This document shows, piece after piece, positions 6,751 through 61,062 of a DNA stretch of 64,000 nucleotides. The position numbers were made by a program, and so were the translations under genes. The notes beneath the pieces are model-generated. The model searched no databases and was not told the origin of the DNA. It was given only the letters and a program-made list of their open reading frames with translations. The stretch is from positions 41,499,803-41,563,802 of the forward strand of contig NC_057718.1 of the NCBI RefSeq assembly GCF_004010195.1, given 5' to 3'. The stretch is from Chiloscyllium plagiosum (Eukaryota). How positions within the stretch are numbered: the stretch's first letter is position 1; every line of letters starts with the position of its first letter.

Positions 6751-6895
6751 AACAAACCAAAAGAACTGCGTATGCTGCAAATCTGAAATAAAAACAGAAA
6801 TCGCTGGAAAATCTCAACAGGTCTGACACATCTGTGGAGAGAAATCAGTTAACATTTTGAGTCCAGTGACTTCCTAAGAAATCCTAAGAACTAAC
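6751..6895. mobile_element. Short Penelope-terminus-derived element (family B), single arm
   Basis: aaaacagaaatcgctggaaaatctcaacaggtctgacacatctgtggagagaaatcag matches 47583-47680; flanked by the imperfect duplication aactaaataggcaa / aactaaacgggcaa. Confidence 0.7.
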
Positions 6896-7071
6896 AACTA
6901 AACGGGCAACCAGCTATTTTAAGAAAAAATTGAGAAATGTTGATTGCTAATGAAAAGAGTGGAAACTAGTTGTAAACTAGTGTCAACTTTCAAGGAACAA
7001 GCTGAATAGAGATTCTCCTGAATTGAAATATTTCCGATGATGGAAACTATAAGAATGATAGAAAGTAAAAG

Positions 7072-7261
7072 GAACAAAAACAGAAAGTGCTGGAAAAACT
7101 CAGCAGGTCTGGCAGTATCAATGGAGAGAAAGCAAAATTAATGTTCCGAAATGTTAACTTTGCTTTCTCTCCACAGATGCTGCCAGACCTGTGGAGGTTT
7201 TCCAGAAATTTCTGTTTATGGTTCTGATTTGCAGCATCCACACCTCTTTTGGTTCTTTGTT
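7072..7261. mobile_element. Fold-back Penelope-terminus-derived element (family B)
   Basis: Left arm gctggaaaaactcagcaggtctggcag...ggagagaaagcaaaattaat is inverted as gttaactttgctttctctccacagatgctgccagacctg. Confidence 0.75.
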
Positions 7262-7476
7262 CAGAAAATATGAGTATTTGTCTGAAAATAATGTGAGGTA
7301 GAGGTACTCTTCTACAGGAAAATTGCAGAATGGGTCAACTGCTATAATGGAATATTGTTGTATACTGCTGTACAGGAGCAATGTGCTGGGTTACCCTACT
7401 GTGTAGAAACAGTATGAGGTGTGGTACTCGTTAAGAACAGTATATAGATAGTTAATGTTGTGCAAGAACAGTTTGA

Positions 7477-7786
7477 AGTGGGTACACTGCTGCATCACAG
7501 CACCAGGGACCTGGGTTCGATTCCAGCCTCAGACAACTGGCTGTGTGGAGTTTGCACATCCTCCCTGTGTCTGTGTGGATTTCCTCCAGGTGCTCTGGTT
7601 TCCTCCCATGGTTAGGTGGTTTGGCCTTGCTACATTGCCCGTAGTGCCCAGGGACATGTAAGTTGTATGGTTTAGTCCTGGGAAATGCAGGATTACAGGG
7701 AGTAAGATAAAGCAGAATGGTTCTGGGTGGGATGCTCTTTGTAGGGTCGATGCAGACACAATGGGCTGAATGATCTGACTGTATGA
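7477..7786 (+). mobile_element. HE1-type tRNA-derived V-SINE, 5' eroded
   Basis: B box GGTTCGATTCC at 7514-7524; V-domain tgtgtggagtttgcacat...ggtttcctccca; similar to 48570-48890. Confidence 0.85.
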
Positions 7787-8464
7787 ACACAGTGCTTTAA
7801 TGAAACGTCATATAATGGATAGGTTGAAAAAGTTATGCTAAAAGTCCTAATAATTCTGTTAATAACAGTTGTAATAATTGGACTGCAGCCTCAAATATAA
7901 AATATGAGAACACCAAGGCCAAAGATTTGACTTCTTTGCTGTTCCCTCATTTGGCTATTTGATTGCATTACTCTCTGAGTTGTATATTCAAGCATCCAGT
8001 TTTCCAACTGCATTGTGGTTTCTCACTAGATGTTTTGAGCCCAGAACAGTTAAACTTACAGAACACTGTGCAGATGAAAAGTGATACTGCTTCCAGCCTG
8101 ACAAAGCTTACTAATTCGAGAAAAGAATTTCATAGAAATTGGGCCAAGGTGGACCACACCCCAACTCTTTTCTCCTTCAAAAACAAATTTTCGGATTGTG
8201 GATGATAAAATTGTGTTTGCATTGCTCAATCGTCATACTTCCACAGAGTAACTGTTCATTTTTATACATCTTTAATCATTAAAAATTGATTGGAGAAAAT
8301 ATAAAATGATAGCATATGATGGTTGTTTTTCCTGATACTGCCTCAAAAGTAATCGAACTGCATGATACAAGTGCAATTTAACAGCAATGTAAAAGACAAA
8401 TATTATTTAAAGTTTTCAATGTAATAGTGAGAATGCCTTTGTTTCACTCACAAACAGTACTCAC

Positions 8465-8618
8465 CCGGCTGTGTTGAGTATCTGAACTCCACAAGTAAGG
8501 ACAGGCCCCAGCACAGAAGTTAGCCTGATAGCCCTTGGGTTCATGAATCCATTTCCACCCCAGGTCTCTCCGGAAATCAATGTATAGTGGGCGTAGGCAG
8601 CAATTGTCCTGCACACTT
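8465..8618 (-). CDS. TGFB2: TGF-beta2 exon 6 equivalent (mature cystine-knot domain), 154 nt
   Basis: Translation (R)[51 protein letters not shown], visible inside ORF 8444..8641; acceptor tctattgaacag, donor gtgagt. Confidence 0.99.
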
Positions 8619-8754
8619 CTGTTCAATAGACAAATATTCACATTTAAATAACAGGCACCTTTTTTTTCAATGTCTGCTTTTCTTTCCCCTTATCTCCTGA
8701 AGCTTCTGACTTATGCAACGGTCTGCCCAAAACATGATTCCTTTAAGTATAGTT

Positions 8755-8910
8755 CTCAGGATGCAGGCAGCACTGGAAAGGCTGGCATTTACCGCCTATC
8801 TCGCCCTGAACTTTCATACAACTGGTACAACTGAGTGGCTTATTGTACCACTCCAGAGGGCAGTAAAGATTCAACAATGTTGCTGTGGTGTTGGAGACTC
8901 AAATTAAATA
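8755..8910 (-). mobile_element. DeuSINE (SacSINE1-like) fragment
   Basis: Shares cagagggcagtaaaga-tcaac-a-ttgctgtgg with 23490-23530 and the tail sequence with 20770-20830. Confidence 0.55.
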
Positions 8911-13689: not shown

Positions 13690-13900
13690 CTTTAAAAATA
13701 ACAACTCTTGTTAGAAAAGGTCACAATGCATATTCCTTCCTTCATGACATGTCACTATCGCAGTCAGGCCTTCTGCAAAACCAGATCAGATACTTGACTT
13801 ATTCCATATTAAAACTGAAACATTTCCCCGGTACAGATTTGATGTTCCAGTAACAATGTACATTGAATTAATTCTGGCTATTCCCTCATTTTCAGTTTCT

Positions 13901-14783: not shown

Positions 14784-14823
14784 CTTCCCCTTAGAAACCT
14801 GCTGAGTACCAGCTTTCTGAATG

Positions 14824-14945
14824 AAAACCGAAAGAACTGCAGATGCTGTAAATCAGAAACAAAAACCTGCTGGAAAAGCTCAGCGGGTCTGGCAGCATCT
14901 GTGGAGAGAAATCAGAGTTAACGTTTTGGGTTGAGGAAGGGTCAT
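14824..14945. mobile_element. Short Penelope-terminus-derived element (family B)
   Basis: gaaagaactgcagatgctgtaaatcagaaacaaaaa...gctggaaaagctcagc...gagttaacgtttt is the reverse complement of 50385-50495; ends in tgaggaagggtca. Confidence 0.8.
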
Positions 14946-17432
14946 TCTCCTTTCTTCCTGTCCCTGGCTCAAACCCTGAGCTAAGACCAATGTTAACATC
15001 AGAGCTAGTTCAGGACATACAAAAGATTAAACTTGGAAGCTGCTTAGCAATTAGCAGAAATATCCCTTTAAGAGCAAGATTTATCCCAGACTAAGCCAAC
15101 AAAAATCAGACAGATAATCCACTGGGAACTGCAGAATTTTCCGCTGGACTGCCAATCAGCAACAGAATGTTAAGATTTGCTTCAGTTTGTAATTGACTAA
15201 AATATAGAGATTTGTATTGAACAGTCTGTACTTACATAGTGTGCAAATGGCAACAGGAGATGCAAGCCCAACATTTGCATGGTAATGAGGTGAAAAAATG
15301 TCTTGCCCTCAATTTCCTCAATATCTCAGCTGCACCTCTTTTCACTGGTTCCCCTTAAAGGTGAGCTTTTACCTTGTATCTCTTAGATTGGAAAATCTGA
15401 GGGTACCCAATCAGCACTGTAAAATCTGACAAAAGGTAAGTGGGCGACATTTTTTGTAGCTCAGTTAGATTTTCAGGTCTGATGTTTTCCAAAAGAAGTC
15501 TTTTAATTTAATTTTGTAGCTGTATTCCTGTCCCCACCCTGTTTGCTGGTCATTGATGTTGTCAGTGGAATGGGCCTACACCAGAGGTGTAGATGTAACT
15601 ATCTGAACATTTACCTCAGGCTGTCACATGCCTGGGCAGAGGGCAGTGAAGAAAATGAGTCCATTAGGTCCATATGGACTTGCAGCCTTTATTTTTAAGA
15701 GGATTCATCACCCCAAGAGAGACCTTAAATGGGTAAAATCTGACATTAATATAACAGCATGCTAAAACTTTTGAAAGCAAGAAACTCAAATGGCACTGAA
15801 CCTGAGCTAAATGGGTCATTGCTAATTTCTCAAACTCTCCATTAGTCCTGCCTCAGGACTCCCATTTAGACACTGCTTTGAAAATAACTTCAATAATTGA
15901 TTATACTAATTAAGGCCACTCAATGCTTCAGTTCAGGGCTCTAAGATATTCACTTGGATTTAAGTGTTTCTCTTGGTAACTAAAATATTTTACTTAATTG
16001 TTAGAACTTAAAAGATTCAATGTTACATTACTGTGAAATTCCATAAATATGACCTAACTAAGGTCTGTTAACTTAAGGAATCTCTGGAATGCTTACTGTT
16101 TCCAGTAGCAAGATCCATTTTTCCAGCAACTGTAATGTATGTTACTGTAGTGCTGTACTAAATGCAGTTACAGCTGCTCAAAATCCTGAATTCCAGTGGC
16201 GGTCCTAGCAATGATATGGAGAAGTTAAGTTAATAAAATGGAGTTTTAATAAGGACTAACATAAGCTTAAAAACAGCTCAAAGCCAAGATGGACAAAGTC
16301 AAATGTTAATAAGTTATATTATGGCTTATAGCTGATTCATTTTAATCTAAGAATATCAAAGTACTATTCTCCAGATACTGTTTTGGCACTAGTCCACTTT
16401 TGTTACCATTTTCTCACTGCTATTAAATGGCAAATTTTGATTCATTGGTTTGGCTTTGTTGGAATATTTATGTTATGAAAAACTGGACAATTATTGTTTA
16501 TCAAAGACACAAGCCATATTAAAACAATAGTAGTAAACTAACTAGTCAGACAAGTCATTCCCATTAACATGAACCTTCGACTCACTGTCACAAAATGGAA
16601 AAATATTTTCCGAGTAATTATGTTTTTCTTGTTTTTAAGAAGTAGTTGTCGCTGACATTGGAGAATGAATGTCTTCATCCCAAAACAGTTACAAGGAAAA
16701 TCCTTGGAGAAGTTTTAAAAATTCTTGGCTGTAAAAAGGATCTGTTTTAGAATGTACATAAGTATCAATAGCAATCATTTTTGATGTCAAAAGAGTCCCC
16801 ACCATGGACTCTCTCTGACAGATCAGTGCATGAGTTGGTATGTTTTGGGGGCATTCAAACTTGATCCTCTTCCTTTTAGGAAACTAAACAATTTTAATCA
16901 ATGTTCAAACAGGACAAAATGGCTACTTTTTACAAATACCTCAGAAACTGGCAAGGCACTGGCTCAATTTGAATACATTACAAGGGATAACCATCTTCTG
17001 TCTAAGAGACCTTCTTAATTACAAGCTGGAGGCTAAATAGTTATTTCTCAGTCCTAATCTCTCTGGTAGTGAATGATCAATTGCCATACACTTTCAGTGC
17101 AAATCATGAATATTTTGCTGCAAAATCCATTCAAAATTACATATGCAATATGATTTTAGCAGGTAGAATTGGTTTTGTTCCAAAGTCATTCTAACTAATC
17201 CTACTATTAAAACCAGAGCCTTTACAATCTATCAGTAAAACTCAAAATGGCAGCTATAAATGACAGATGACACAGGACCAAAGGAAATTTTACATGAAAT
17301 TACAACACAGGCCTTAAGCAGACAATTGAAGCTGAAACCAACAACTTACAGAACTGAAGGAAGTACCATTGCCCAGGATAGACTGCATGAAATGTTGTAA
17401 TTTACGTGAGATTATTTGTAAATTGTGTATTA

Positions 17433-17648
<216 letters not shown>

Positions 17649-23770: not shown

Positions 23771-26712
23771 GGTATCAGCTGACCTATTTATTGCTGAATA
23801 TTATTGGCTCTCTAATCTAGAGAAAAAAAAATTATGTTAGTTGCTTGAGGTTTTGCTTTGGATTTGAGACAGCGGTAATTACTCACCAAGAATATTATCA
23901 ACATTACGTTAAATTATTTTTGTGAAGTTGTTACTGGACATTTTCCTTCTGGCATTAAATAGGAATTTTCGAGGGCATTCATGCAGCTTGTGAGAATTTA
24001 CAGTTAATTATTTCAAAACCAAATGCCAATTTGTGTTGTAGCCCTAATACGGTTTGCATGTATCAAAGGCAGGCGAGTTTCTCTCCAAGAGCTCTCCAAT
24101 GTAGAGAGTGTACAAATATTTGGACAGAAGTTCTGCAGGCTTTGTAATCTCCTGCTGTCACTCCAATGGGAGACTGGCAGAGTTCAATAGAGAACCAGTT
24201 GCACCAGGCCTGTACTGGTTCAGGGACTCCCATTGAAGGGAATGAAGATGGATGGGGCTGCAACAAAGAGACATTGAAATTCCAGAGCAGGATTTTGCAC
24301 GTTGCCATCTCACTCGGAATCCGAGCCAGTTTTGGAGGCTGCTGTTTCAAATAAAGTGAGACCCACTGCCTTTCAGATGGGGACATTTATAAAAAATGGA
24401 AGGCACTCACAAATGCACAGCCAATCGAATTACTGGGATGACACTGTGTGACCAATCACAGTTCATAGAGCAGGAGGTCCAATGACTATTCACCCCCCCA
24501 TACACAAATCCTTTGTTCTACCAGTTTTGATTAAAACATCTTTAAACCCTGCAAACTACCCTCAAAAGGATTAGAATTCTTACTCGTCAGTATTGTTTGT
24601 AAATTGTTCTAAATTATTGTTGCATTTTGCCTCTGGCAATTTTCCTTTGAGATTCCACTTTCTACCGATCTGTTAATATTACCCTGAAATCCAGGTCCCA
24701 GGAGGGACCAGGGGAAATTGAGGTGTGATGGACAGGAAATTCCCAGCAAGGCCTGCATTTTCCCCACAAAAGACAGCCTTTTCATCATGGTAAAAATGGG
24801 GCAGGAGTCTGCAAATCACAAGTTCCCCCTCCCAAACCACTCTCACCCTCCCCAAACAGAGCACTTCCTATGTTAATGGAGACAGGACTGGACCAACCAC
24901 ACATTCTGTGGTTTACAGAAACAGCTGGCCATTTAAATCATTGGCTGTTTTCATTCAAGTCAGATATTTATGAAACATTATTGTGAAACACAAAGTATAC
25001 AGAATAAACCTGGTATGAACAAGTCTATGCTTTGTACATATTTTTGGGGAGGTAAGGTATCCCTTTGAATATGGCTCTGGTGCACTTTGATAGGAGGCAA
25101 AAGTGTCCCTGGAGGAAGTCAGGCTCTTTTCAAAATGGTTATAAGTAGGCATGAATGTATATTAGAAATGCATAAACTCATTAACTGTCAAGCTCATTGG
25201 AACTCTCAATAGACTTGTCAAAATCAAATGCAAATGTGTCAAACATAATTATCAAGACAATATGATAGGAGAGCAGCCTGTTCTTCAAATCTTCCAAACA
25301 AAAAAATAAAATGCTTGCTATTTCATTCTGTCTGTTGATAGAAGCCTCAGGTCTTCCATTACTGAATTATTGCCAACTGACTGATTTTACAACCATTCAT
25401 TATCACTGTAGGGTGCCTGCCATTTCACAGTTTGATTGCGAATGGTTATAGACTCTTTGAAGTGAGACTCTAAAAGAATTCCAATGCTTGTTGTTATAAG
25501 AGGTTGCGCACTTTAATGAAATGTTTGTTCTAAGTCAGTATATGTTTGTTTTAAGGTAGTATATTGTTTATAGAATGTAAATACAGTAAATGTGATTTTT
25601 TGAATGAGATATTTTAATATACTAAAGTCGACAATAGACATTTTATTGAGTAGAAATTTACTTTGTTTATCTCTGCATAGATACTGAGGGTGGCCCATGG
25701 TGTATACAAGACAAATTGATATGGTAGTTTGAAGGGGAGATGAAGCTGTGTGGGGGATGGACATGAATTGGTATTAAGTTGGCATAGGGGCTATAAATGT
25801 CTATGGGGTAGAGGCATGCATTGGTGTGGAACTATGATGGCCATGGGATTTGGGTGCAGGTGCATTGGTTGTTTTGAGGGCATGGGGAGCCATAAGGGTT
25901 CCATACCTGGACTAATATTGATGTGTAATGTGGATTGTGAAGGGGTGTGAGCTGATTATGTACAGGTTTTTGTTTGGTGAATGGAGGCAAGCCTGTCACC
26001 CAGCATCACTCCATCCCTGGTACAGTCTGCACTGGGTTCCATGTAGGCTGCCACCATCAACACCTCACAGTTCACCCTGCTTCCTAACCACAGACAGAGA
26101 TTCTTACACCCAGGTAATGATTATTCAAGATCTGGTTCACGGAAACAGGAATTTGCCTGACTCTGCGCAGCTGAAATATAAACAGGCATTGAGGCCTTAA
26201 ATATCCCATTATGGGCATCTTTAAAAGCCCCATTTTCTAAATATCACACATGGGGCTGAATTTTATGGAACCTCTAGGGATGGGCAGGTTGGGAGTGGGA
26301 TGGGTATGTGGTAACAGGTCAGTATAATAACAAACGAAGCAGAAGGCTGATGTCTGCTGCCTTCATGAAGCAGTAGGAGTTTGTCAGTGACAAGGAAAAT
26401 GAAGGACCACCTTCCAGTCCAAACTTAATGGGACCATTAAGTGACCAATTGAGAGCCTCTTCCGCTTTTCTTACCATTTTACCCATGGCTGTTAACCCCT
26501 CTGCTATGAGAGCAGAGCACCTGGTGAACACTGGAAGTTGTCTGTGAGCTCAGAGGTTGTGAGGAAACTGCTTACTTTGCTGAGTCCTCCCATAGCAGCA
26601 AAGAGTGCCCAATGGCATTGCCAGGAACTGTCTAACTGGCCCCAGTGACCCCCACTTTCTTCCAAAGTTGGTGAACATGCTGACTCTCAAGGTTGAATAC
26701 AGTTATGAGTTG

Positions 26713-26841
26713 GAGAAAGTGAGGACTGCAGATGCTGGAGATCAGAGTCAAGAGTGTGGTGCTAGAAAAGCACAGCAGGTCAGGCAACATTCGAGGAACA
26801 GGAGAATCGATATTTCATGCAGAAGCCCTTCATCAAGAATG
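26713..26841. mobile_element. Short hammerhead-type element (family A), single arm, 13-bp TSD
   Basis: TSD CAGTTATGAGTTG at 26700-26712 and 26842-26854; body homologous to 38910-39124. Confidence 0.85.
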
Positions 26842-27338
26842 CAGTTATGAGTTGCCCAGCCCTCCCAGTGATGCTATTGTTGCTGAAAAGCTGCCAGCTC
26901 TCCTGGAAAGGACAGGATTGACCATCATAGCAACCATCAGCTATTATCTTTTAACACTGACTCACAATTTGTTCAGGCCCCCTAAGAATGCTGAGGCAGG
27001 GTTGCCCCAGTTCTTTTCCAGCCTGTCCTGTGGGCCACCATTGCCCTGCGATGGAATCAAGATCAAGTTCAATATTCAGACCTGGCAAGGTTCATAGTTG
27101 GGAGATAATCAGACCTAGGCAGCGGAGGGGGAAGAGAAAAAATGGTGAAGGAGGAAGACAATGGAAAAGTTGAGAGGAGAATATGGTGGAAGAGGAGGAC
27201 AATGTCAGAAGGCAGTGGAGTGGCAGATCATTGGACGCCAGAAGAAATAGGAAAAAAATGACCTTCAACTTAAATTATTGATAATGGCACAAAGACAAAA
27301 GGATAAGTGGAACTTACATCTCAAAATATTTAGAAGCT

Positions 27339-30900: not shown

Positions 30901-30987
30901 GGACCCAGTCCCAAGGTTGCTGGTTTTGAGATGCTATATCTGTAAGGTGTAGCAAAGAAGGCCAAATAAAGCACCTTTAAAAAAATG

Positions 30988-31163
30988 CCACAATACCAGG
31001 TTATAGTCCAACAGGTATATTTGGAAGCACTAGCTTTCAGTAGCTACTTGACGAAGGAGCAGCAGTCCAATAGCTCATGCTTCCAAATAAACATGTCAGG
31101 TTATAACCTGGTGTTGTGACATTTTTAACTTGCTACACCTCAATCCAATACCGGCACCTCCAA
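30988..31163. mobile_element. Fold-back element, family C, with decayed hammerhead core
   Basis: accaggttatagtccaacaggtatatttggaagcactagct is inverted as agctcatgcttccaaataaacatgtcaggttataacctggt; central tgacgaaggagcagcagtcc; flanked by acct(t)taaaaaaatg repeats. Confidence 0.7.
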
Positions 31164-31213
31164 ACCTTAAAAAAAAATGGAACGGTCTAAAGGAAGGCTC
31201 TTAAAACTTTCAG

Positions 31214-31400
31214 AGCTGAAAAATGTGTTGCTGGAAAAGCGCAGGTCAGGCAGCGTCCAAGGAGCAGGAGAATCGACATTTCGGGCATAAGCCCTTCTTC
31301 AGGAATCTCCTCCTGCTCCTTGGATGCTGCCTGACCTGCTGCACTTTTCTAGCAACACATTTTTCAGCTCTAATCTCCAGCATCTGCAGTCCTCACTTTT
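31214..31400. mobile_element. Fold-back hammerhead-type element (family A)
   Basis: Inverted arms; duplication ctcttaaa(a/g)ctttcag at 31198-31213 and 31401-31416. Confidence 0.9.
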
Positions 31401-35857: not shown

Positions 35858-36620
35858 CGTCATATATACATTTCTTGATTTGTGACTTCCAGAAAAGAAT
35901 TAAATTTCTATCATTGCTAAGATTGAATGATTCCGGTGAAGCTTTGGGTGCAGATTACTTTGTCTGCTTTCTCAACTGGGAATGGTGCCAGTCATACTTC
36001 ACGTTTTGACTGACATTCTTTCTCACTGCATTTTACTGGCTGGGTATCCTTTCTTCATTGAGCCACACACAAGGGAGTGTGAGTGTCAGAGTTGATATAG
36101 TAACAATTATTTCATTTAGTCAGGCTTTATCTCTGCAACCTTCCTGATTGTAGAACACCCAGCACGTTCTGAGGCCTCGAGTATCACTGTTGTGCCAAAA
36201 TTAAAGAATGTTTATGTGAGTAGAAACAATGTTTTGAGTTCAGAATATTCCCAGAATTCTAAATCATTCCTTCATTCCACAATATTCAGCTATAGAAATT
36301 AAAGCCTTACTTTCCCACCGTTCTCATTCATGAGTGAATTTCGAATATTTCAGTTCCTCAGGAGTTAAATTGCTTTGGCATATTCACTCAAACACCATCG
36401 CCATGTATGAATATTTGTGGCCGGTTGTACATACAAAGAGTTTGCCTTCTGAGAATCACAACACAGCCAATTTTTTTTCCCAATGTGAATGGCGTTCCTG
36501 GCATTTCATTCTTACGACGCATAAGGACATGGTCTCAAAAGAACTGGAATGCTACACAGAAAACAAATGTAAAGTTGCTGAACTGAAAGTCAACAAAAGT
36601 CAACCAGATTTTCCTTCACG

Positions 36621-36850
36621 GAAAATATACACTTGTAGAATTTTCAGCTATTGAATATCATTAGTTCAAAGGATTGTGTTGTCAGTTTTGTACTTTAACT
36701 GTTAGACACTCTGGAATTCTTTGATTTGGTTGGGGGTGGGAGGGATATGGTTCAGCAAAACAGAGGTTGGTAAAGTGAACAGTTCTCTTATATGGGTTAC
36801 ATATATTTTGATCAGCTGCCCCTGCCACACCCCTCCGTTCCACCTCTAAT
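36621..36850 (+). repeat. 230-bp direct duplication, copy 1 (inserted copy)
   Basis: Matches 38051-38280 with one mismatch seen (36760 A vs 38190 T); flanked by tttccttcacggaaaat at 36610-36626 and 36850-36866. Confidence 0.95.
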
Positions 36851-38050
36851 TTCCTTCACGGAAAATCTTCTCATGACAATAACGTAGCAAGGAATGTATG
36901 AGGAGAGTATGCTCATAACGAGCCCTTCCGCCTGAACTCTCTTCTTGTCTACTCCACAGAAAGCCTCTCCAAACTGGAAATACATGAGCTGTCAAAACCG
37001 TGTAATCTTGCACTTGAGAATCTTTCATGGCAACATTTACTCAGGAACAATTTCCAATTGTTTCGCTCACTGGGACTGAAAGTATCTTAGAAGTCCAATG
37101 TAACTTGCTTTTTAGGTATATTCTGAAGACTGGCATTTTAGTTACTACCAAGATGGGTTCAGATGCAAAGTGGGTGCTAAAAATAGTGCCATTAGCTGGC
37201 ATGCTGAGTCCCTATCTCCATTCAGTCCCATGGCTTTTTCCTAGAAGTGGTGTCGACAGAAGGACTCTCACCCCGTCCCACCCATTCAGCAGCAGATAGA
37301 TTATTCAGTTTGTTAGTGGCCAGTGAAGACCAACTTAAAGCGTTTGACTAATATTTTCCATTCAACATCCAGTTTCCAAGACACAATGGAAAGCAGTATT
37401 CCAGACAGGCTGTGAGCTCTTCCCTACCTGCCTGGGTGCAGCAGCAGCTGCTGGTTATCCCATAGAATGGCTTACTTACCACTAGCCTGTCTGCTCCATT
37501 CCACATAACATGGCCGGGTTGCAAATACAATCTTTCAACAAGTTTTGTGAAGGTTTGGGAGAGGGCACCATGAGTTTGAAGCACCCTCTCCCTCACGTAC
37601 TAAGAGTGGTATTCTACTGCTCTTCTTATGCAGACAGGCTTCGGATTAGCTGTTTTTGACTCTTTGGTGTTGAGGTAAAGGGTGGCAGCAGAGCCTGAGA
37701 TGAGGATAATAGATACTTTTGCTACTAGATGCTTCTGCAGCGGTTGGACTTGAACACGATCCTCCTAGCTCAGAATTGGGTATGCTACCACTGTGCCCCA
37801 AGAGGCCTCAAGGCTTCTGATTAGCTCTCAGGTTTTAACAGCTTGCCCATTGTGCTTAATTGAATGGTGGCCAACTCATCAGTTGGTGGTTCCAAGGTAA
37901 AACACAGGTGAGAGATTGTTTCAAACATAGTGCATGCTATTAAACTCCTTTAGTTCCTGTTGCGGGTACAGAAATACATGAAGAAATACAGCCCTTCATG
38001 TTAGGATTTAGAAGCAACTTTAATTTTATGGATGCGCAAGGTTAGGATTT

Positions 38051-38280
38051 GAAAATATACACTTGTAGAATTTTCAGCTATTGAATATCATTAGTTCAAA
38101 GGATTGTGTTGTCAGTTTTGTACTTTAACTGTTAGACACTCTGGAATTCTTTGATTTGGTTGGGGGTGGGAGGGATATGGTTCAGCAAATCAGAGGTTGG
38201 TAAAGTGAACAGTTCTCTTATATGGGTTACATATATTTTGATCAGCTGCCCCTGCCACACCCCTCCGTTCCACCTCTAAT
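38051..38280 (+). repeat. 230-bp direct duplication, copy 2 (probable donor)
   Basis: Offset of 1430 bp from copy 1; no flanking duplication. Confidence 0.95.
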
Positions 38281-38610: not shown

Positions 38611-38909
38611 ATTCACGCTGCTAAGAGAGTGGGGCTTGAAGAGCTCCTAAGGCAGTGTTTACTTGTCACAACTGCCCGAATCTGGAGCTCAGGGAAAAAC
38701 ACAGGTGTATCTGGCTTGGCGGAACTGGCTGTTGGCAAAGAGCTGGAGTAGTGTTTGTGAGCAATGCTGGCATGTAAGTTGGTAATCAGAGGAATTATAG
38801 GCCCAGGAAAGGAGGGTGGTCACTGGAGGTAAAAGCATTCTCTGTGACAGTTTCAAGGCCAGATCAGCAAGGACAGCGGAGTTGTAAACCCTTGTGAGGT
38901 TTAGTGGGA

Positions 38910-39124
38910 GCTGGAAATGTGTTGCTGGAAAAGCGCAGCAGGTCAGGCAGCATCCAGGGAACAGGAGAATCGACGTTTCGGGCATAAGCCCTTCTTCAGG
39001 AAGAAGGGCTTATGCCCGAAACGTCGATTCTCCTGTTCCCTGGATGCTGCCTGACCTGCTGCGCTTTTCCAGCAACACATTTCCAGCTCTGATCTCCAGC
39101 ATCTGCAGACCTCACTTTCTCCTC
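38910..39124. mobile_element. Young fold-back hammerhead-type element (family A), perfect 90-bp inverted repeat, 15-bp TSD
   Basis: Arms 38908-38997 and 39000-39089 are exact reverse complements; TSD TGAGGTTTAGTGGGA at 38895-38909 and 39125-39139. Confidence 0.95.
38972..38999 (-). ncRNA. Minimal (Penelope-type) hammerhead ribozyme core
   Basis: CUGAAGA-A-GGGC-UUAU-GCCC-GAAA-CGUC: conserved core boxes, 4-bp helix II, ACGU palindrome in place of helix III, GUC triplet. Confidence 0.7.
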
Positions 39125-41179
39125 TGAGGTTTAGTGGGACCTGGTGACCCATTGTGGCATTATGTTTTGAGAGGAATTGCTGACAAATCTGCAGGACTGT
39201 CTTGGTCACATTTGATGTTTGGTGTGCACTGAGTGTGTTTGATCAGAGTGTGTTGCCCATGTTTGCCATATGTTGATTCTGGGTGTTAGGATTAGCACTT
39301 TTATTGGAATTTTTAAGACTGTTCTAACTCCTATAGTAACATATTGATGTTTTAACCGTGGAACCTTGTGGATTTATTCTCTGAACACATTCCTGGAATC
39401 TCAACTTTTGTCTACCTTAAAAAAAATAAAGTTTATTGGTCCCTGAATAGATTGCAACAACACATTTAGTGGCTGGTCAGAGATTGTAACTTAAATTTGA
39501 CAATCTCATCTGAGGTCACAGCAGATTTCATATAGGTGCTGACTGTGCATTAAAGTAAAATGTGTAAAATAGATGAAAGGAATTGTGACTGCTCTCATTA
39601 CATTGTGCTTGACACAGTAGTGTATTGTGAGGTACGAGTATTTGTTGTATTGTACTCTCTGTTGCCCTCCCTGCTGGAGAGGTACAAATAAAGTTAGCTC
39701 ATTTAAGCCTCCCTGCTGCTGAGCTTTTCTCTGTACAATACAACAGAAAGATGGTGATGGAACTGGGATGGAATTTGTTTCTGCACTTCATTTCAGAAAT
39801 TAAGTACTGAAGAACATTATGACAGTCTTTAAATTCCTACAGTTGCTTTTTAGAGAGCTTGGACAATTTGAAAGAGGTCTCTGTTGTTGCACATTGTCTT
39901 CAGATACGCAATGAGTCAACATTGTACATAATGGGCAAAATAGCTCTGAAGATGTATTTCAGACAATGGGGGAATTCAATCACTACAAAGAGAAATGGTA
40001 CAATTATGAACAAATGTTTTACATTTGGCAGCAAGTGGATAAATTAGGAGATGAGAATAAAGTAAATGTTTCCCTAACTGTGATGCTTTTGAGACAGATT
40101 TTAATTCCTGTTGTTGGATAGACCCCAGTTCAGTGGAATATGCTGAAATTAATTAAATTCTGAACTCACAAGAGACCATGACTGAAAATGACATTAAACT
40201 GAGAATGATGTTCTATCAAAGGAAAGACTTGTCAAATGAAAGTATTGCAGATTACATTCTTATGTTTTAAAAACATAAATCAACCTTAGGAAGCCAAAAA
40301 AACAATAAAAGCCAGGCCATACTTTTAAGCAAAACCAATAAGCACACGAGGAAGGTGACCTGTGATAAAGGCATAGCCATGAGATAGCTGCAAATTGCAC
40401 TGAGTTCATTTCCAGAGCTGGTAGAGAAGATCTTAGGATTTCAGCAAGATCCAGGTGTCACCATTCAAGTTCATAGTAAGAAATTTAGACGCTACTGTTG
40501 CTGTGACAACAACCAACAATTTAAATGCCCCCTTTTTACTCACTGTGGAAAGTCAATCATATCCAGACAGGAAGAGAGGAAACAGTAATGCTCCAAATCA
40601 AGTTCCAGGTCGCACCAGATTAAAGTCTTGGTTAGATCTAAAGCTAATTCAGGAGACTGTAAAAGTTTGAAAATACATATGATAGACAAGGAAACAGAAG
40701 TTGACATTATCAAGCAGAAAGATCAAGACTTGTATTCAGTCAAAGAGCAAGAAAAACAGCACATGGAAGATGAGAGTAAAAGGGCTGAAGATATAAATCA
40801 TTGGCCGAGGGAAAAATGGAAGTCTAAATTCGCAACTAATGTTCATTGTTGATACAGCTGCAGCAATATCTTTTACTTTAGAAGGAGAGTACAAAATGTC
40901 CCGGAATCACATTCACTTATGCAAATTTGCTGTGGAGCATATTGTTATTTCAATGAGAGCATTCCAATATTTAAGGAAGTTAGTGTTGGGGTAGAATATA
41001 GTGATGCATCACTTTACTTGACATTGGTGGTAGTAAGGGGCAAGGAAATGGCTTAAGAAAGTAGGATAGAATCTCAGAGATCTGAGCAACATTTGATATT
41101 TGTGACAGAATCAGATGAGAAAGTCTAGTGAAGCCCACCTTAAAAATGATCTTACTCCATCTTTTATGCTTTTCACAAT

Positions 41180-47315: not shown

Positions 47316-48092
47316 TTTATACATGGAAATGAATGAGTAACCAAATATAACGCCTTCCCCTCCCTCGACTGCCTTTCCCTCCGGGACACCCTGATCCACT
47401 CTTCCTTCACTCCCAAGAATGCCCCACAGCCCCACAGTAAGACTGTCTACTATTGTGTTTAAGAGTTATCCAACTGCCAATGTTTAGATAGATTATTAAA
47501 ATCCATTAATCAAACGCACACAGGTATAATCTGTATGAAAAATGTAACAGAGGTTATCCAAACGAAGACAGTGAAATTGAAGCAAAAACAGAAATTGCTG
47601 GAAAAGCTCATCAGGTCTTGCAGCATCTGTGAAGGGAAATCAGAGTTAACATTTCAGGTCCAGTGATCATTCCTCAGAACTGATGGTAGCTAGGAAAATG
47701 TTGGTTTATATGTAGGAGGTAAAGTAAGAAGAGGGGGTAAGGAATAAATGATTGGTGTGAATAGAGCCCAAAGAGAGAGAAGAACAGTTGGACAGACAAA
47801 GGATTTGGTAACGGTCTGACTGGGATGGTCAATAGCTATTAATGGAGACCATTAGTGGCTAACAATGGATAGTGTGTAATGGCAGAATATGTGATAACAA
47901 GGCCAATGTGTGGGATTGGGGTCTAGGACATGTGGGAGTTCAGGTCCTAACGTTATTGAACTCAGTATTGAGTTCTGCAGGTTGCAGGATCCCCAAAGTG
48001 GAAAATGAGGTGCTGTTCTTTCAGCTTGCACTGAGCTTCACTGGAGCACTGCAGCAAGCCTGAGACAGAGATGTTGACCAGGGAACAGGGTG

Positions 48093-48188
48093 AAGCTGAA
48101 AATGTGTTGCTGGAAAAGTGCAGCAGGTCAGGCAGCATCCAAGGAACAGGAGAATCAACGTTTCGGGCATAAGCCCTTCTTCAGGAAT
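48093..48188. mobile_element. Family A short element nested in the Penelope element
   Basis: TSD gaac(a/t)gggtg at 48083-48092 and 48189-48198; hammerhead core on the minus strand at 48157-48184. Confidence 0.85.
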
Positions 48189-48569
48189 GAACTGGGTGGT
48201 TTGTTAAAGCGGCAGGCAACTTTTTTCTGGGCAGAATGTAGATGTTCTGCAAAGCGGTCACCCAGTCAATGCTTTGTTTCTCCAATGTAGTGGACACCAC
48301 ATTGCAAGCAGCGAATGCAGTAAGCTACATTGTGAGAAGTGCAGGTAAAGTGCTGTTTCATCTGGAAGGTGTGTTTGGGCCCTTGAATACTGAGAAGGGA
48401 AGAGATAAATAGGCAGGTGCAACACCTTTGATGGTTGCAGGGGAAGATGCCATGGGGCTGTGGGGGCATAGTTGGGAGTGAAGGAAGAGTGGACCAGGGT
48501 GTCTCAAAAGGAAAGGTCGCTGCGGAAGACAGACAAGGGAGGGGAAGGAATTATGTCTGGTGGTGGCAT

Positions 48570-48890
48570 GGGGCAGCATGGTGGTTCAGTGGTTAGCACT
48601 GCTGCCTCACAGCACCAGGGTCCCAGGTTCGATTCCAGCCTTGGGTGACTGTGTGGAGTTTGCACATTCTCCCCGTGTCTGCGTGGGTTTCCTCCGGGTG
48701 CTCCGGTTTCCTCCCACAGTCCAAAGATATGCAGATCAGGTGAATTGGTCATGCTAAATTGCTCATAGTGCCAGGTGCATTAGTCAGAGGGAAATGGGTC
48801 TGGGTGGGTTACTCTTCAGAGGGTTGGTTGGACTGGTAGGGCCGAAGGGCCTGTTTCCACACTGTAGGGAATCTAATCTAATTTAATCTA
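48570..48890 (+). mobile_element. Full-length HE1-type V-SINE nested in the Penelope element
   Basis: A box TGGTTCAGTGG at 48582-48592, B box GGTTCGATTCC at 48626-48636, V-domain, CR1-like tail, (aatct)n end. Confidence 0.95.
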
Positions 48891-50354
48891 TCTCACAGGA
48901 GGGGTCATCTTCTGGATGTAGATGCCGGTAGGATGGTAGGTAAGGACAAGGGGAGCCCTATTGCTATTGCAGGAAGGAAGAGATATGGTGAGGGCGGATG
49001 TGCGGGATATAGGCTGGACCTGGTAGAGGGCCTTATCGACAACAGTGCTGGGAAATCCTCAGTTGAGGAAGAAGGTGGACATTTTGGAGTTTCCCTTGTC
49101 GAAGTTGGCCTCTTTAGAACATAAGCGACGGAGGTGGAGGAACTGGGAGAATGAAATGGAAACAGGGTGCGAAAATGTATAGCCTAGCTAGCTGTGAGAA
49201 TCCATGGGTGGGGACCACAATAAGACTGGAAGAAGGAATGTTCCACATATCTCATGAAGAGACAGGCATAATTAGGGCACACGCACGTACCCATAGCCAC
49301 CCCTCTGACCTGAAGAAAATAAGACAAGTTAAAAGAGAAGTTGTCAAAAGTGAGGACAAGTGGAGGAGGGTGGAGGTGGGTGGAGACAGTTCAGGCCTTA
49401 GCTCCAGGATGATGTCCTGAGACCATCTTGATGGGGGATGCACATTTAAAGGGACTGCCTGTCCACGGTGAAGGGGAGGTGGCTGGATCCTGCAAACTAG
49501 AAAATCTGAAACTCGCGTAAAGCACCAGAGGAATCGTGGATGTATGTAAGCAGGACTGGACCAGCAGAGAAATACTGAGTCAAGGTAGGAAGAGATGAGT
49601 TCTGTAGGGCAGGAGCAGGCAGAAACAATGGGTCTGCCCGGGCAGTCCTGTTTGTGGATTTTCAGAAGGACGTAGAAGTGAGCTGTGTGGGGCTGGAGAG
49701 CTATCAGCTTGAAGGTACTTGGGGGGGCTGTGGAGAGATCACCAGATGAAATGAGGTCAGTGATTGTGGTTGATACAATGGTCTGATGTTCCATGGTGGG
49801 ATCATGGTCCAGAGGAAGATAGGAGGAGGTATCTGAGAGCAACAGTCACGTTAGATCAAAGTACATGGAATGCACTTGGAGGGAGACTTGGTTAGATTGG
49901 GTGACGGGGACAGAGAAATTAAGGTGACCAATGTCACGTCTTTAGTTGTCAATGAATAGATTTAACACCCCACCCTGTTTCCTGGCCAACATCTCTTTCT
50001 CAGGCTTGCTGCAGTGCTCCAGCGAAGCTCAGTGTAAGCTGAAAGAACAGCACCTCATTTATGACTTAGGGACCCCACAGCCTTCCGGATTCAATACTGA
50101 GTTCAATAATTTTAGGACCTGAACTCCCACATGTCCTAGCCCCTTACCCCACACATCAGGCCTTGTTGTCACAGTCTGCCATTGCAAATTCCCTATTGTT
50201 AGACACTAACAGTTTCCATTAACAGCTATTCACTCTCCCAGCCAGATCATTATCCATTCCTTTGTCTGTTCAACTGGTCTTCTCTTTAGGCTCTATCCCT
50301 ATCTATCATTTACTCCTTAACACCCTCCTCCACCCTATCTTCTGCATATAAACC

Positions 50355-50400
50355 ATCAGTTCTGAGGAAGGGTCACCCGACCCGAAACATTAATTCTGAT
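50355..50400 (+). ncRNA. Hammerhead ribozyme motif in the Penelope terminal repeat (helix III palindrome mutated)
   Basis: aucaguu-CUGAGGA-A-GGGUC-accc-GACCC-GAAA-cauu-aauucugau; the flanks can pair as helix I. Confidence 0.6.
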
Positions 50401-51084
50401 TTCTCTTCACAGATGCTGCCAGGCCTGCTGAGCTTTTCCAGCAACTTCTGTTTTTGTTTCTGATTTACAGCATCTGCAGTTCTTCAGGTTTTATTTGAGA
50501 AATTGAAGATTTGGCAAAACATTGTGAAGTGTATCTCAGAATTAGATACGATTCAATCAATCGTCCTTTCATTCAACAGTCAAAGACAAGTAAACATTGG
50601 GAATGAGGACACATTAATTTCTTTGAAATGAAAGAGAAAGAGTTCTTGTTTTCATCGATATGTATAATTATCGGATAAATGTTGTGTCTTTATCTAATAC
50701 CAAAACAACCAAAACGGTTGTGGTTTTAAAAAGTTTGTTTGCAATTAGTGTGTTGTCAAACAAATAATGGTCTACAGTTCACATCAGAAGAGTCCGAAAT
50801 ATTTCCGAGTACCATCAGAGTTAAATGTAATGTACCAGCATATCACCCACCAATTAATGATGCTCCAAGAGGAACCATACAGATTGTGAAATGGTCTTTA
50901 CAGAAATATTCATTAGTGACACATTGGCCAGTAATTTCATGTTTCTCTTTGACACAGGCAAACCTACTTTCTGTTCGCTTACAGAATGACTCTACAGTCT
51001 AAAACAGGTTCCTCACCTAACACACTCCCAGGGCAAAGTTTAGAATGCTCAACATCAATAGCAACATAAGAAAAAAGTAACAAT

Positions 51085-52563: not shown

Positions 52564-53164
52564 ATATAAATTAGGTGGTTGTTTTTGACCAGAATGGATG
52601 TGATGGAATGAAGGGCCTTTCAAGTCCGTATGACTCTACCTCTGCAGCAGTTATTCTAACAAAATCATAACCCCGAAATGTAATGTAAAAAATATAGTTT
52701 AGTCTGAATCTGCTGAGCCAATATTTAACTTTTAACAGGTTACACTTAATGATGGGTATGAGTAAGAGTGATTTATATTCTAAAATTTTCTTAATTCTCT
52801 TCTTCTCTCTTTAAGGTATTGCAAAATCATGGACAGCTGCTGTCCTCCAGAATCTCATCAAAGACACATTAAAAAGGAAGCAGAAGAAATCAGCATTATT
52901 CTGTGTTTCAACAATTTATGCAGAGCTTGGCTCCAATGACCGCTTGTCAACTGGGTGTGGGAATCCCTGCTGATTTCTTTTCCTCCCTAACTTGAGGGCC
53001 AAATTTATGTGGAGGCAGGCAGACCCTGTGGATCTAAAAGATGATAGGCAAGTCCTGGATGCAGAAATCCTCCCCAGTTTCCAATGATCCAATTTTTAAT
53101 CAGTGGAGGAATGGGCCAAACTTGATTCACAAAGGCACAGACAAAAACCCAGGAGAGCCATATG

Positions 53165-53264
53165 ATTCTGATGAAGGGTCACTGGACAGGAAATGTTCAC
53201 TCTGCTTTCTCTCCACAAATAGTGCCAGATCTGCTCATTTTCACCTGCAATTTCTGTTTGTGTT
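53165..53264 (+). mobile_element. Family B short element with decayed hammerhead
   Basis: ctgatgaagggtcactggacaggaaatgttcactctgctttctctccaca. Confidence 0.7.
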
Positions 53265-56935: not shown

Positions 56936-57158
56936 ATCAAGATTAGAGTGGTGCTGGAAAAGCACAGCAGGCCAGGCAGCATCCGAGAAGCAGGAAAATC
57001 GACGTTTCGGGCAAAAGCCCTTCATCAGAATCGGCTTCATGGTTCCTGATATAGGGTTTTTGCCCAAAACATCGATTTTCCTGCTCCTCAGATGCTGCCT
57101 GACAAGCTGTCCTTTTCCAGCACTACTCTAATCTCAGCATCTGCAGTATCCACTTCTG
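56936..57158. mobile_element. Fold-back hammerhead-type element (family A variant), 13-bp TSD
   Basis: TSD CATAGCCATCATA at 56923-56935 and 57159-57171; imperfect inverted arms. Confidence 0.9.
57001..57028 (-). ncRNA. Minimal hammerhead ribozyme core with canonical CUGAUGA
   Basis: CUGAUGA-A-GGGC-UUUU-GCCC-GAAA-CGUC. Confidence 0.7.
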
Positions 57159-60077
57159 CATAGCCATCATAGAGTTTGCTTTTTCCCTCTCTCATGTTGC
57201 AGCTTGGCATTTGCTATGTGAAATCTGCCATGGAAAGGATTCTACCTATCAAAAGGGTTATTTACAGCAACAGTGATTGGGTCTTGCAACTGACAAGTAG
57301 GATTCTATGTAAATGCAATGTGCACATCAAAGATCAAGTACTTGCCAATACAATAATATTTAAATTATTACTTTGAATGAATCCAAAGGAGAGCTCAATA
57401 TTGGCATTGTGATGATCTGATTCAATTCCAATGGAAATTGACAGCAATTAAGAAACAGTAAACATGCCAGTTAGTCAACCATATGGAAAGTCAGAAATAT
57501 TCACAGACCATGTAAAGCTTGTAACTGTGGTGGCATTGTATATCAGAGAGTATTTGTATGGTGGCTGTGTTTGCAAGTTTACAATGAGTTAGAACAGCTT
57601 GTTTACTGCTTCCTGCTCTGATTTACTTAGTGTGTGTATGGGAATAAAATAATTAACAGTAGCTTTTACTAATTACAAGTTAGCAGCCCTTCTTTAATGA
57701 GGAAGGGAAAAACTTGCCCCGCAATGACAATGATAAGAAAAAGAATGTCGCTGCAGTTTTGCCACCTACGAAGTTAAAGAAGCAACATTAGCGCAATATG
57801 GATTATCACATTATTTTCATCTTTCACTGACCATGTCAGGAAGTTATGAAATTATTATTAAAGGGGAGGGAACTAAAAATGCAAGTCTTTTATATGCAGG
57901 TTGAAGGCCAGATTTCCTCAATTCACCTGACAAGACTGCAACAGACCTTCCACCCACCACCCCAAATTCTGCCAGCTTCCTGTGCTGGAGGTCATTGGAT
58001 TTTCATCACAATATTCCCTCACAATCACCAACAGCAGTTGAGAGCACATCAGTGAACCACAGGAAAATAAGATTTTGTTGCATCAGGACAACAACTGCAA
58101 CATGGGAAATACTACCGGGCCCTGAACATTGGATGAACTCATTTGAGGGATTGAATGGATTTGCAATTTGAGGCTTCAAGAATGGAAGCTTTCAATAGGT
58201 TTTCAATTTGAGAGATAAGATATCTCTATTAAACCACCTCCCTCCCCCCACCCCCCACCCCATGTTTTCCACCCCTCCTCACGCACCATTTGAAAGGATT
58301 TTGGAAACTTTGCGCAAATCTCAAATCTACTTCCACCTTTCCTAGGAAGCCAGCAGGAAGAGATCCGGGTATCTGCAATGTCTATCCATGATCCTTTTTC
58401 CTCTCACCATAACAACTCCTGTTCAAATGCAGGAGGTAGAGAAAGCATTCCCAAGGCTGGTTCTGTCAGGGTTCATGCTAAGAAAATTCAGGCTGGGACA
58501 ATAAAGTGTCAGTTGAATTCACTGTCCCATTTCCTCTCACTGTCTCCCATGATCCCACTCATTTCAAGGAGGATTAGAGAGGGGATTCTAGCCCACACTG
58601 TGTTAGCATCATGAACTGCAGTAGAAACACAGCCAATATTACTTTGCACATGGTCTGAGGAGCATCACGTTCCCAGTACAGATCTAAAGTCTTTACAAAC
58701 CTTCACATTTCATGCTTTTGCTTTTAAAATGCATGTATATTTATCCTTTAAATGTGACTTTTCAATTTTTTTTAATGAATATATTTTCCCATCTGCCTCC
58801 ATTTGATCCTTCCCATTCCACTGACACAAGATGGGCTGGAATGATTTTACCTGCAGTCATTTCCATAATGGCTTTCAACAAAATCAATTGTCAAAATACT
58901 TTCTACCAGGCCCCCACCTGAGCTGAATTTTGTATGGTGTCTTTAGCTAACAAGCCCATTAACAATTGACAATACTTTCCCAAAGAAAATAATCAGTGAA
59001 AGGGGCTCATGAAAATATTCAGCCTTTTGGTTAGGAGTCAAGAACTTGACTCTTTGAGATACTGGCTGGCTTCATACATTCCACATTTCATGAAGTAAAG
59101 AGACTATCAGCTTTACTGCCTGTGCTTTGGGAAATCATTACTTTCAGGGTAGATAAGGAGAGCAATGCCAGGCTGAGTAAAATGCTATTGCCAGCAGATA
59201 ACTGTAGAATGTAGGCTGTAAGTTAATATCAATTCAAACTGTCCAACAGACTCCCTTCTGGATTATATTCATGTTTTGACTGTATATGATCCAACAGTCA
59301 CAATACAGTGTACTGTAGTAGGTAAAAGCTTCTTCAATTCCCACAGACGAATGCTGCAGTCTCAGAAATCTTTTCCCCACTATGAATGAGCTAAACGTTC
59401 AGATCTCCCAGGACCATTTAAGGCTGGGGCTCTTGGGAAAATATATTTGATTCTTAATCAAATTTTCTGACCCTAAATGACTACCACTTTCTCTTGAAAA
59501 TACATTAGAGTTTTGATTTGATTTTATGAGGAGATTGCTTTGTGAAAACAAACTGCAAAGTGTGAAGAATGCTGCCACTTCTGGGAGGCCTTGGCCCACC
59601 CTCATATCTCTCCTATTTTTTTCAGATAGAGATCACTATTCAAAGGTGTTTTTCTCTTGCCATGAAAATGAACTTTATTAAAAGAAGTAATCTTAGAATT
59701 TTCTGGTCATGCTGTCAGTGGTATTATTGACATTATTCAATTTTGGCAGAGCTGCTATTTGCAGCAAATCTATCTCGCCTTCCAATACAAAGGATAGCGA
59801 TACTGTTTAACTTTTATTGTGTGAAAATAAAAGCTTCCTAGAAACATATAATTACAAAGCTAAACTAGTTTTGAATGTATAAGCTCTTGAAATGAGATAA
59901 TATAAGAGCTGTGTATTAATAGGTTGCACTGCAGCACATTCAGGGAAGATGCAAGGCAGCCTTCACTGATCTGTGGCTGACTAAACGCATGATACACATT
60001 TTTGAAGCGAAGTCTTAAGTCATTGTTTAAAATTTTATTCATGCAACAAGATTTACATAAAAAAGGTTAGTGAAACT

Positions 60078-60165
60078 AAAACAAACATAAAGAACGCTGG
60101 AGAAACTCAACAGGCCTGGCGGCATTTCTGGAGAGAAACACTGTTTAGTATGCCAGTTCTTCAGT
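60078..60165. mobile_element. Decayed family B fragment
   Basis: acgctggagaaactcaacaggcctggcggcatttctggagagaaaca. Confidence 0.6.
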
Positions 60166-60844
60166 CATAAAAGCTCTGTTGATTTGAAAAATCTAGTCTA
60201 CTGCAATGCACTGTACTACAGCACATAAGCAATACTACAATATTTTCACAACACATTGCTGGATTTCCTCATTGCTTTATATTGTTTGCAGCGTTAGAGA
60301 TTAAACTTGCTGCATGTAGAATTGACTATTTTTCTCCCAGTTCCCACTTGCACATAAACTAGCTAGTGACTGGAAAAATAGCCTAATAGGCATTCGGAAA
60401 CAATGTAGTTTTTGATCAGAATCCTATGTTTTCTTTTTGCTGAGTGGGGAATTTGGGGCAGGAAAGGTAAATGCAGGAGAACACTAACTTTTGCTGAATA
60501 AAGACAGAGGTTTCTGGAGATTCTGTTAGAATTATAACAACAGTTCATGAAACTGAAACACTGTTGCGTTTTACCATGCATGAGCTATGGAACTACAAAG
60601 CTATGGTGAAAATCAGGCTCTCAAGTGCTTTTAAAGACACAAGGATTGGTCAAGTGATTTGACTGCTAATGGCTTCCTAAAGGGCTGTGCAGAACCATCC
60701 AGGGGCTAAAACAAACCAACCCCAGACCTCTACCCACTGCTGGCAAAACCTCCCTGACTCCAGTACTGTTCTGACACAGCTCCCCACTGTTTTACTGGAA
60801 TTTCACGTTTGTTCCTGCCATTCCATTGTCAGTAAAATATTTTA

Positions 60845-61062
60845 AAAACGTAAATAACTGGAAATCAGAAACAATTCTAAAAATTGCTAGAAAGTCTCAG
60901 CAGGTCTGCCAGCATCTGTGGAGAGAAAGCAGAGTCAATGTTTCAGGTTCAGTGATCCTTCTTCTGAAGAAGTAAAATTTAAAACCGTTAACCTGATGTT
61001 TCTCCTGGTCTGCAGATGCTGCTTGACCTGCTGAGTTTTTCCCAACATTTTCTGCTTTTACT
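60845..61062. mobile_element. Decayed fold-back family B element
   Basis: ctcagcaggtctgccagcatctgtggagagaaagcag is inverted as cagatgctgcttgacctgctgag. Confidence 0.7.

Follow-up and report, generated by a model that had tools for sequence, protein, structure and literature searches.

Short hammerhead-bearing insertions in a Chiloscyllium plagiosum contig as probable end modules of Penelope-like elements

The window, i.e., the whole stretch of DNA that was analysed, comprises 64,000 nucleotides of Chiloscyllium plagiosum (assembly GCF_004010195.1, contig NC_057718.1, positions 41,499,803 to 41,563,802 of the forward strand). It contains a broken Penelope-like element (PLE) of about 3 kb and a set of short insertions that carry a hammerhead ribozyme motif. 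A first-pass annotation had reported about 12 such insertions in three families, about half of them fold-backs, and this was borne out: all 12 were present with the described sequence (five of family A, six of family B and one of family C), six as head-to-head fold-backs and six as solos, of which three were tailed and three tailless. They measured 96-255 bp and summed to 1943 bp, or 3.0% of the window. Counts of inserts, ends and fold-back centres given below refer to this one 64-kb window. Positions within an insert are numbered on the strand that reads the hammerhead, with the C of the CUGA box (C3) as 0. The features are as follows.

6752..6882, minus strand: family B solo stub with the long 3' end (tail) and a decayed hammerhead, starting at about -2 from C3 (profile search).
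7066..7262 (7072 below), both strands: family B fold-back; left arm (minus) with the short end, right arm (plus) tailed; both arms start at about +20, inside the hammerhead.
14816..14947, minus strand: family B stub running from +18 to the tail end, preceded by an inverted 13-nt hammerhead piece (+1 to +13).
26713..26836, minus strand: tailed solo stub of family A; 18-bp duplication (26695-26712 / 26837-26854), the last 4 nt of which also match the 5' edge of the element.
30986..31163, both strands: family C fold-back with a decayed hammerhead; left arm (minus) short, starting at about +18 to +24; right arm (plus) long, starting at about -1; A-rich 13-bp duplication.
31214..31400, both strands: family A fold-back with non-nested arms; left arm (minus) from -4 to about +91 with an intact core; right arm (plus) from +28..+32 to the tail end; 16-bp duplication.
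38910..39124, both strands: family A fold-back with arms 100% identical; left arm (minus) starting at -1; right arm (plus) starting at +2, tailed; duplication 38895-38909 / 39125-39139.
47583..50498, minus strand: broken, 5'-truncated PLE, Neptune-type as judged below; exact 10-bp duplication (47573-47582 / 50499-50508).
48093..48188 (A48093 below), minus strand: family A solo stub with the short end and an intact core, lying inside the GIY-YIG region and flanked by a weak 10-bp duplication.
50362..50391, plus strand: minimal hammerhead core of family B, intact, within the inverted arm of the 3-kb element.
53163..53264, plus strand: family B solo stub with the short end, starting between -5 and -2.
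56936..57158, both strands: fold-back of a second family A subfamily with a 10-nt spacer; left arm (minus) short with an intact core; right arm (plus) tailed; exact 13-bp duplication.
60063..60165, minus strand: decayed family B solo stub with the short end (profile search).
60844..61098 (60845 below), both strands: old family B-like fold-back of about 255 bp with arms 58% alike, which could represent two separate events (profile search).

A search of the 64-kb window with profiles built from the window arms returned nothing beyond the 12 listed sites and the 3-kb element. Own-family profiles scored 39-131 bits at every listed site, the right arm of 60845 being the exception at 36 bits; the same profiles scored at most 11 bits in 10 shuffled windows, and two stray matches (E 0.76 and 0.9) lay at this shuffle level. 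No tRNA gene was found in the window. The stretch or a part of it was present in 20 of the 24 runs listed, with no RNA run among these 20, and motifs specific to the shark copies had no match in viral contigs or in prokaryote genomes.

The 3-kb element supplies the coding context for family B. Its open reading frame (ORF) lies on the minus strand, with reverse transcriptase (RT) pieces at 49977-48912 and a linker cysteine motif plus GIY-YIG domain at 48457-48170, and a short interspersed element (SINE) and a family A stub are nested inside it. The coding arm ends tailless at 47583, and the inverted arm (about 49955-50498, plus strand) contains the end of the ORF together with the hammerhead and the tail. 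In tblastn searches the proteins P0006, P0007 and P0039 matched RT, thumb and endonuclease in that order at 37-54% identity, across a frame disrupted by stops, frameshifts and deletions. Relatives of the ORF are full-length, colinear RT/GIY-YIG proteins of 840-890 aa, and the RT fragment has its highest-scoring relatives among the proteins of Mobula, Chiloscyllium and Hypanus. The linker motif CNHQRCCTC aligned to CSRNRCNTC of P0006 (CX2-5CxxC), and two cysteines lie inside the GIY-YIG core; a CX2-5CxxC motif in the RT-endonuclease linker and core cysteines are marks of the Neptune/Nematis group as described in PMC8557442. The predicted protein thus marks the 3-kb element as an endonuclease-positive PLE and, by its linker motif, as Neptune/Nematis-type. 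A metagenome locus (L002) holds a homologous 2.7-kb PLE, also with inverted hammerhead arms (tblastx E in the 1e-62 range). An orphan fragment of a PLE RT-endonuclease linker was also observed at 47340-47434 (plus), 150 bp to the left of the 3-kb element and on the strand opposite its ORF.

Family B was 80-88% identical to the terminus of the 3-kb element. The identification of B with the termini of an RT/GIY-YIG Penelope element that repeats the same layout at the 3-kb scale therefore stood, with the correction that the minus strand carries the ORF and the inverted arm carries the tail. Families A and B had been listed as separate, but are homologous along the whole module, both by profile cross-matches (down to E 2e-15) and in alignment, and the derivation of both from PLE termini was upheld. 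Judged from sequence, the A and B inserts are end modules of PLE termini. Family A comprises five inserts in two subfamilies; no variants that would separate the B stubs from the 3-kb arms were found. Family C is represented by one insert, for which a profile search within the window gave no similarity to A, to B or to coding sequence, and layout alone likely ties it to PLEs.

The minimal PLE hammerhead, as set out in PMC4209133, consists of CUGANGA, an extra unpaired base, stem II, GAAA, a palindromic stem III region and a short stem I. A descriptor for this form gave five matches in the window (31302-, 38999-, 48184-, 57028- and 50362+), where 30 shuffled windows averaged 0.03. The motif had been described as present in many of the insertions, intact or decayed; the core was intact in only four of the 12 short inserts, and no fold-back kept two intact cores. 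Rfam hammerhead models gave no match to the window at E up to 1, as is expected for such minimal forms. Twelve Rfam microRNA-hairpin matches, all weak and far below gathering scores, were rejected as hairpin look-alikes.

A scan of metagenome contigs for the shared core, covering 21 of 64 parts, returned at least 121 loci. These did not align to A, B or C at the DNA level apart from short core matches, and 22 of them carried PLE coding sequence. Covariation was examined in 27 rows, comprising seven window cores and a single representative of each of 20 outside clusters (out of 32; the 12 singletons were omitted), with the family C row offset by one column. In the 20 outside rows the search pattern had preset three stem II pairs, and stem I lay outside that pattern; in stem I, both sides had changed in four of four pairs. 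The covariation score was 0.478, compared with 0.162 in shuffled alignments (0 of 500 as high) and at most 0.135 when slid. The reading of the motif as a minimal type I hammerhead, predicted from sequence, holds. Among family A copies the catalytic boxes were not clearly better kept than their flanks (4/66 versus 28/264 differences, p=0.35), which fits neutral decay after insertion. The corresponding family B figures (1/44 versus 29/204, p=0.023) were not used, as the four arms had been chosen for a recognisable core.

The modules end at one of two 3' positions that lie 33-38 nt apart: about +89 to +93 or +118 to +124 in family A, and about +96 to +108 or +135 to +138 in family B. The 3' ends are bimodal in the three largest outside families as well. 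The inverted arm of the fold-backs had been called truncated, but the shorter arm is not cut randomly at its outer end and instead stops at the second fixed 3' end. Of the 17 inverted pairs that could be classified, 16 combined one long with one short arm (p=0.0003 relative to independent choice, or p=0.004 when unclear pairs are counted as misses); these were six of seven pairs in the window, where 60845 was unclear, and 10 of 12 distinct pairs outside, where L047 was unclear and L002 had two short arms. The latter locus (L002/L003), with both arms short-ended, is the sole exception to the one-tail rule. The tailed arm was the right, plus-strand arm in six of six clear fold-back pairs (p=0.03, post hoc), and may be so by chance; all three tailed solos lie on the minus strand.

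Target-site duplications were scored against 150 random position pairs, among which the best chance score was 9. Duplications above every random pair were found at four of the five family A inserts (13-20 bp, scores 13-17), at the family C insert (13 bp, A-rich) and at the 3-kb element (10 bp, exact). The claim that all five A copies carry duplications of 10-16 bp thus held for four, with a somewhat different length range; the duplication at A48093 (10 bp with one mismatch, score 7) was at chance level. The homology between the two 3-kb arms stops exactly at 48092, the edge of A48093.

These traits are those of PLE insertion units. A tail of 30-40 bp at one end only, and 8-10-bp duplications with an adjacent inverted 5'-truncated copy, are reported for PLEs in the sections cited of PMC8557442 and PMC3846280. 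For a PLE of Anolis, PMC11167929 shows in the part cited that two internal RT start sites delimit the tail, that the protein cuts and extends both DNA strands, and that ribozyme cleavage is dispensable. An inverted 5'-truncated copy with the tail on one end is what six of the seven window pairs present, and duplications of variable length were found in A (four of five), C and the 3-kb element. The inverted arm, the one-sided tail of 33-38 nt and the variable duplication are therefore already published PLE features.

The centres of the six fold-backs all differ in position and in joint, with overlaps of 1-4 nt or short spacers; each palindrome was therefore made at its own insertion, with no copied master element. 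In 31214 only the short arm contains -4 to +27, and only the long arm contains the tail. The tailless arm of the 3-kb element exceeds 2 kb, and its tailed arm is about 545 nt. As neither pair is nested, the arm is not a hairpin copy of its partner, and two RNA copying events are needed. The proposal that the fold-backs form a system spreading as units was not supported, given the six different centres and the non-nested arms. The hairpin-copy question is left undecided by the other pairs (the arms of 38910 differ by 3 nt only).

Partner arms share private states, and the partner is the closest relative, in the three A fold-backs (31214L being tied) and in the 3-kb pair. In 7072 and 60845 the closest relative is another arm, and the partner arm was the best match in only three of 12 outside pairs, with one tie. 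Gene conversion may be an alternative source of these shared states. PMC3846280, in the part cited, ascribes inversions to self-priming on an antisense template, and the non-nested arms fit two priming events better. If a PLE protein dimer used two adjacent start sites of one RNA, one per DNA nick, exactly one tail in nearly every inverted pair would be explained; this proposal is put forward tentatively and is unlikely to be right. At 14931-14947, the inverted +1 to +13 piece in front of the +18 stub resembles a twin-priming product, and it also places the template 5' end near C3.

A retrozyme-type cycle was another origin offered by the first-pass annotation. Here, self-cleavage and circularisation would yield small circular RNAs, which would then undergo reverse transcription and insertion. 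In its favour, the hammerhead is real and covaries, the right arm of 31214 allows a reading in which it starts at the cleavage site, and the portion cited of bioRxiv 10.64898/2026.07.22.740005 reports retrozyme families in the one chondrichthyan genome that it covers. Non-LTR (long terminal repeat) retrozymes, as described there and in the portion cited of PMC7229834, resemble the window inserts in being short, non-coding, furnished with a type I hammerhead and related to PLE termini. They are, however, head-to-tail tandem repeats processed to circular RNA, whereas the window inserts are dispersed solos and head-to-head pairs; no head-to-tail tandem units or module array were found in the window, and because such arrays are absent the inserts are not regarded as retrozymes. 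A start at the cut site was seen in only one of 18 arms, and ambiguously; stem I complementarity supplies microhomology there anyway. Circular permutation was seen in no arm. The cores of a fold-back lie on opposite strands, so that one transcript cannot carry a dimer, and in no fold-back are both cores intact. This origin is thus very improbable.

The 5' ends of the modules are also confined. Among the 18 short arms, 13 start at about -5 to +2, four at +18 to +24 and one at +28 to +32, and no short arm extends more than about 15 nt upstream of C3. Family B starts were measured against 420 nt of true upstream sequence, matched by no short copy; those of A and C are bounded by the duplication or the partner arm, and spacers allow at most about -15. 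Upstream sequence of more than 30 nt was present in 43 of 66 arms from five outside (non-shark) families (median reach 63 nt), compared with two of 13 A/B arms reaching C3 in the window, or one of 10 insertions (p=0.0014), in sets that differ in species, age and ascertainment. The 66 outside arms remained from 90 after removal of 11 duplicates and 13 cut by contig ends, and the upstream reach in the window was hand-corrected for partner arms matching as palindromes and for the 3-kb arms stopping at an indel.

This 5' edge is not the cleavage site, which lies at +27/+28. The continuous 5'-length distribution that would mark ordinary PLE debris was not seen in the window, and because the 5' ends cluster, stereotyped truncation is the better of the two readings offered by the first-pass annotation. 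A literature search, with Dfam and Repbase outside its range, found no published account of these shark stubs or of a 5' boundary at the hammerhead. The clustering of 5' ends is the one feature left unexplained by the published PLE work consulted. A TATAAA sequence was observed at 50347-50352, 15 nt upstream of the B core; a start driven by it would fall near +15, close to the minor +18 to +24 cluster.

The preferred interpretation is that the A and B inserts, and likely also C, are hammerhead-plus-tail end modules of Neptune-type PLEs, likely written by the elements' own RT-endonuclease from what are likely two RNA start sites, with copying ended in most cases where the hammerhead begins. A probability of roughly 0.7 is assigned to this reading. 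In the proposed mechanism, the PLE RT-endonuclease likely writes the modules into the genome. Reverse transcription likely begins at one of two fixed RNA sites, the spacing of which equals the tail, and the template RNA, on the simplest reading, likely starts at the hammerhead front edge. The module is also the front end of the PLE unit (the ORF start lies downstream in published elements), and RT primed on this front copy would for that reason run off the RNA 5' end after 90-140 nt and leave a stub. A fold-back would represent two priming events, one per nick and one per start site, with the two arms presumably joined head to head at short microhomologies. Most stubs would be dead on arrival. 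The minimal template of the Anolis PLE needs sequence to +172 of the ORF, beyond the main start at +111-118 (PMC11167929, in the part cited), and a template that reaches past the main RT start hints that stubs are poor templates.

The same edge could arise if RT, starting from the 3' terminal copy of a full transcript, stalled or broke off at the hammerhead fold, the clustering then reflecting RNA structure. Copying from the 3' copy does occur, as the 3-kb arms demonstrate, and four of the 18 arms start at +18 to +24, the 3' foot of stem II and the first hairpin contact for RT, with one more at +28 to +32. The main cluster, however, lies at the far (5') side of the fold, which RT would already have passed; outside families with the same core motif are read through freely; and the predicted folds of single arms are not stronger than those of shuffled sequences (z -1.6 to +1.0). 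Structure-induced stalling fits the minor +18 to +24 class only, and as an account of the whole it is improbable.

A SINE-like life cycle was also weighed, in which the 125-140-nt module is itself a non-autonomous element whose stubs are transcribed from their own 5' edge and recopied in trans by PLE protein. The clustered 5' ends and two 3' ends would then delimit a discrete unit, and the short upstream reach in the window relative to the outside families (2/13 versus 43/66 arms beyond 30 nt, with 13 of the 18 short arms starting at about -5 to +2 and none beyond about -15) has the same implication. Family A, with its five inserts in two subfamilies, has no ORF-linked copy in the window. According to the sections cited, the pseudo-long terminal repeats of PLEs are enough to mobilise unrelated sequence in trans (PMC3846280), and Chlamydomonas has non-autonomous PLE partners (PMC8557442). 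Yet the same 5' edge is predicted by run-off from a PLE transcript, with no second round of copying. The module's own promoter is putative, the B stubs have no variant set that distinguishes them from the 3-kb arms, the catalytic boxes of A are not clearly better conserved than their flanks, and the minimal template described in PMC11167929 extends past the RT start sites. A SINE-like cycle is therefore unlikely.

Several observations weigh against the preferred reading, i.e., end modules written by the PLE's own RT-endonuclease. The sample is small, consisting of 18 short arms in one window, and the in vitro work to which the mechanism appeals by analogy concerns the Poseidon clade and not Neptune. 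The sharp 5' edge is unlike random truncation, and is absent from the five outside families. The window holds no upstream or coding partner of family A or C. None of the six short family B inserts has a duplication that exceeds the 150 random pairs, these inserts being old and diverged. In addition, the transcript of Drosophila virilis Penelope starts 46 nt before a 75-nt intron (PMC2377424), the end of which abuts the hammerhead (PMC4209133); as described in the parts cited, its start would therefore be about 120 nt upstream of the hammerhead.

Endonuclease-positive PLE units of the Neptune/Nematis and Penelope/Poseidon groups, as presented in the sections cited of PMC8557442 and PMC3846280, share with the window the head-to-head inverted arm, the one-sided tail, the variable duplication, the order of RT and C-terminal GIY-YIG domain and the linker cysteine motif. 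The window differs in that its units are mostly 96-255 bp with 5' ends piled at the hammerhead edge; frequent 5' truncation is described in those sections, but no such fixed edge. Metazoan PLE hammerheads (Cervera and de la Pena 2014, PMC4209133) have the same motif and occur mostly as solo copies ascribed to truncated PLEs; opposite-strand pairs 100-700 bp apart are mentioned, and sharks are not named in the text cited. The window hammerheads are known as sequences, with cleavage predicted. PAc, a Poseidon element of Anolis (Frangieh et al. 2024, PMC11167929), likewise has two internal RT starts bounding its tail, cuts and extends both strands, and carries its hammerhead a little over 100 nt upstream of the RT starts. 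It differs in clade, and the sections cited do not treat inverted pairs or a 5' ribozyme boundary.

Two observations concern the neighbourhood of the inserts. The stub pairs at 6752-7262 and 30986-31400 are neighbours within 185 and 50 bp, respectively, and the 3-kb element contains a nested A stub; new insertions may prefer the vicinity of earlier ones. Separately, 230 bp of non-repeat DNA occurs at both 36621-36850 and 38051-38280, copied 1.4 kb upstream with one mismatch. The copy has no poly(A) and is flanked by an exact 17-bp direct repeat (36610-36626 / 36850-36866) that overlaps it by a few bases, a duplication within the length range of the PLE stubs. It represents local host DNA inserted recently, either by templated copying or by retrotransposition.

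The inserts are mostly known PLE biology, with one open mechanistic detail, the 5' edge. The window is a clean and dense (3%) record of PLE integration, useful for repeat annotation in cartilaginous fishes, in which hairpins of this kind resemble microRNA precursors. Should the 5' edge indeed be the RNA start and an inverted pair represent one RNA primed twice, thousands of stubs would allow two questions about PLEs to be tested directly on genome sequence: how the inverted arm and its one-sided tail arise, and what part the hammerhead plays.

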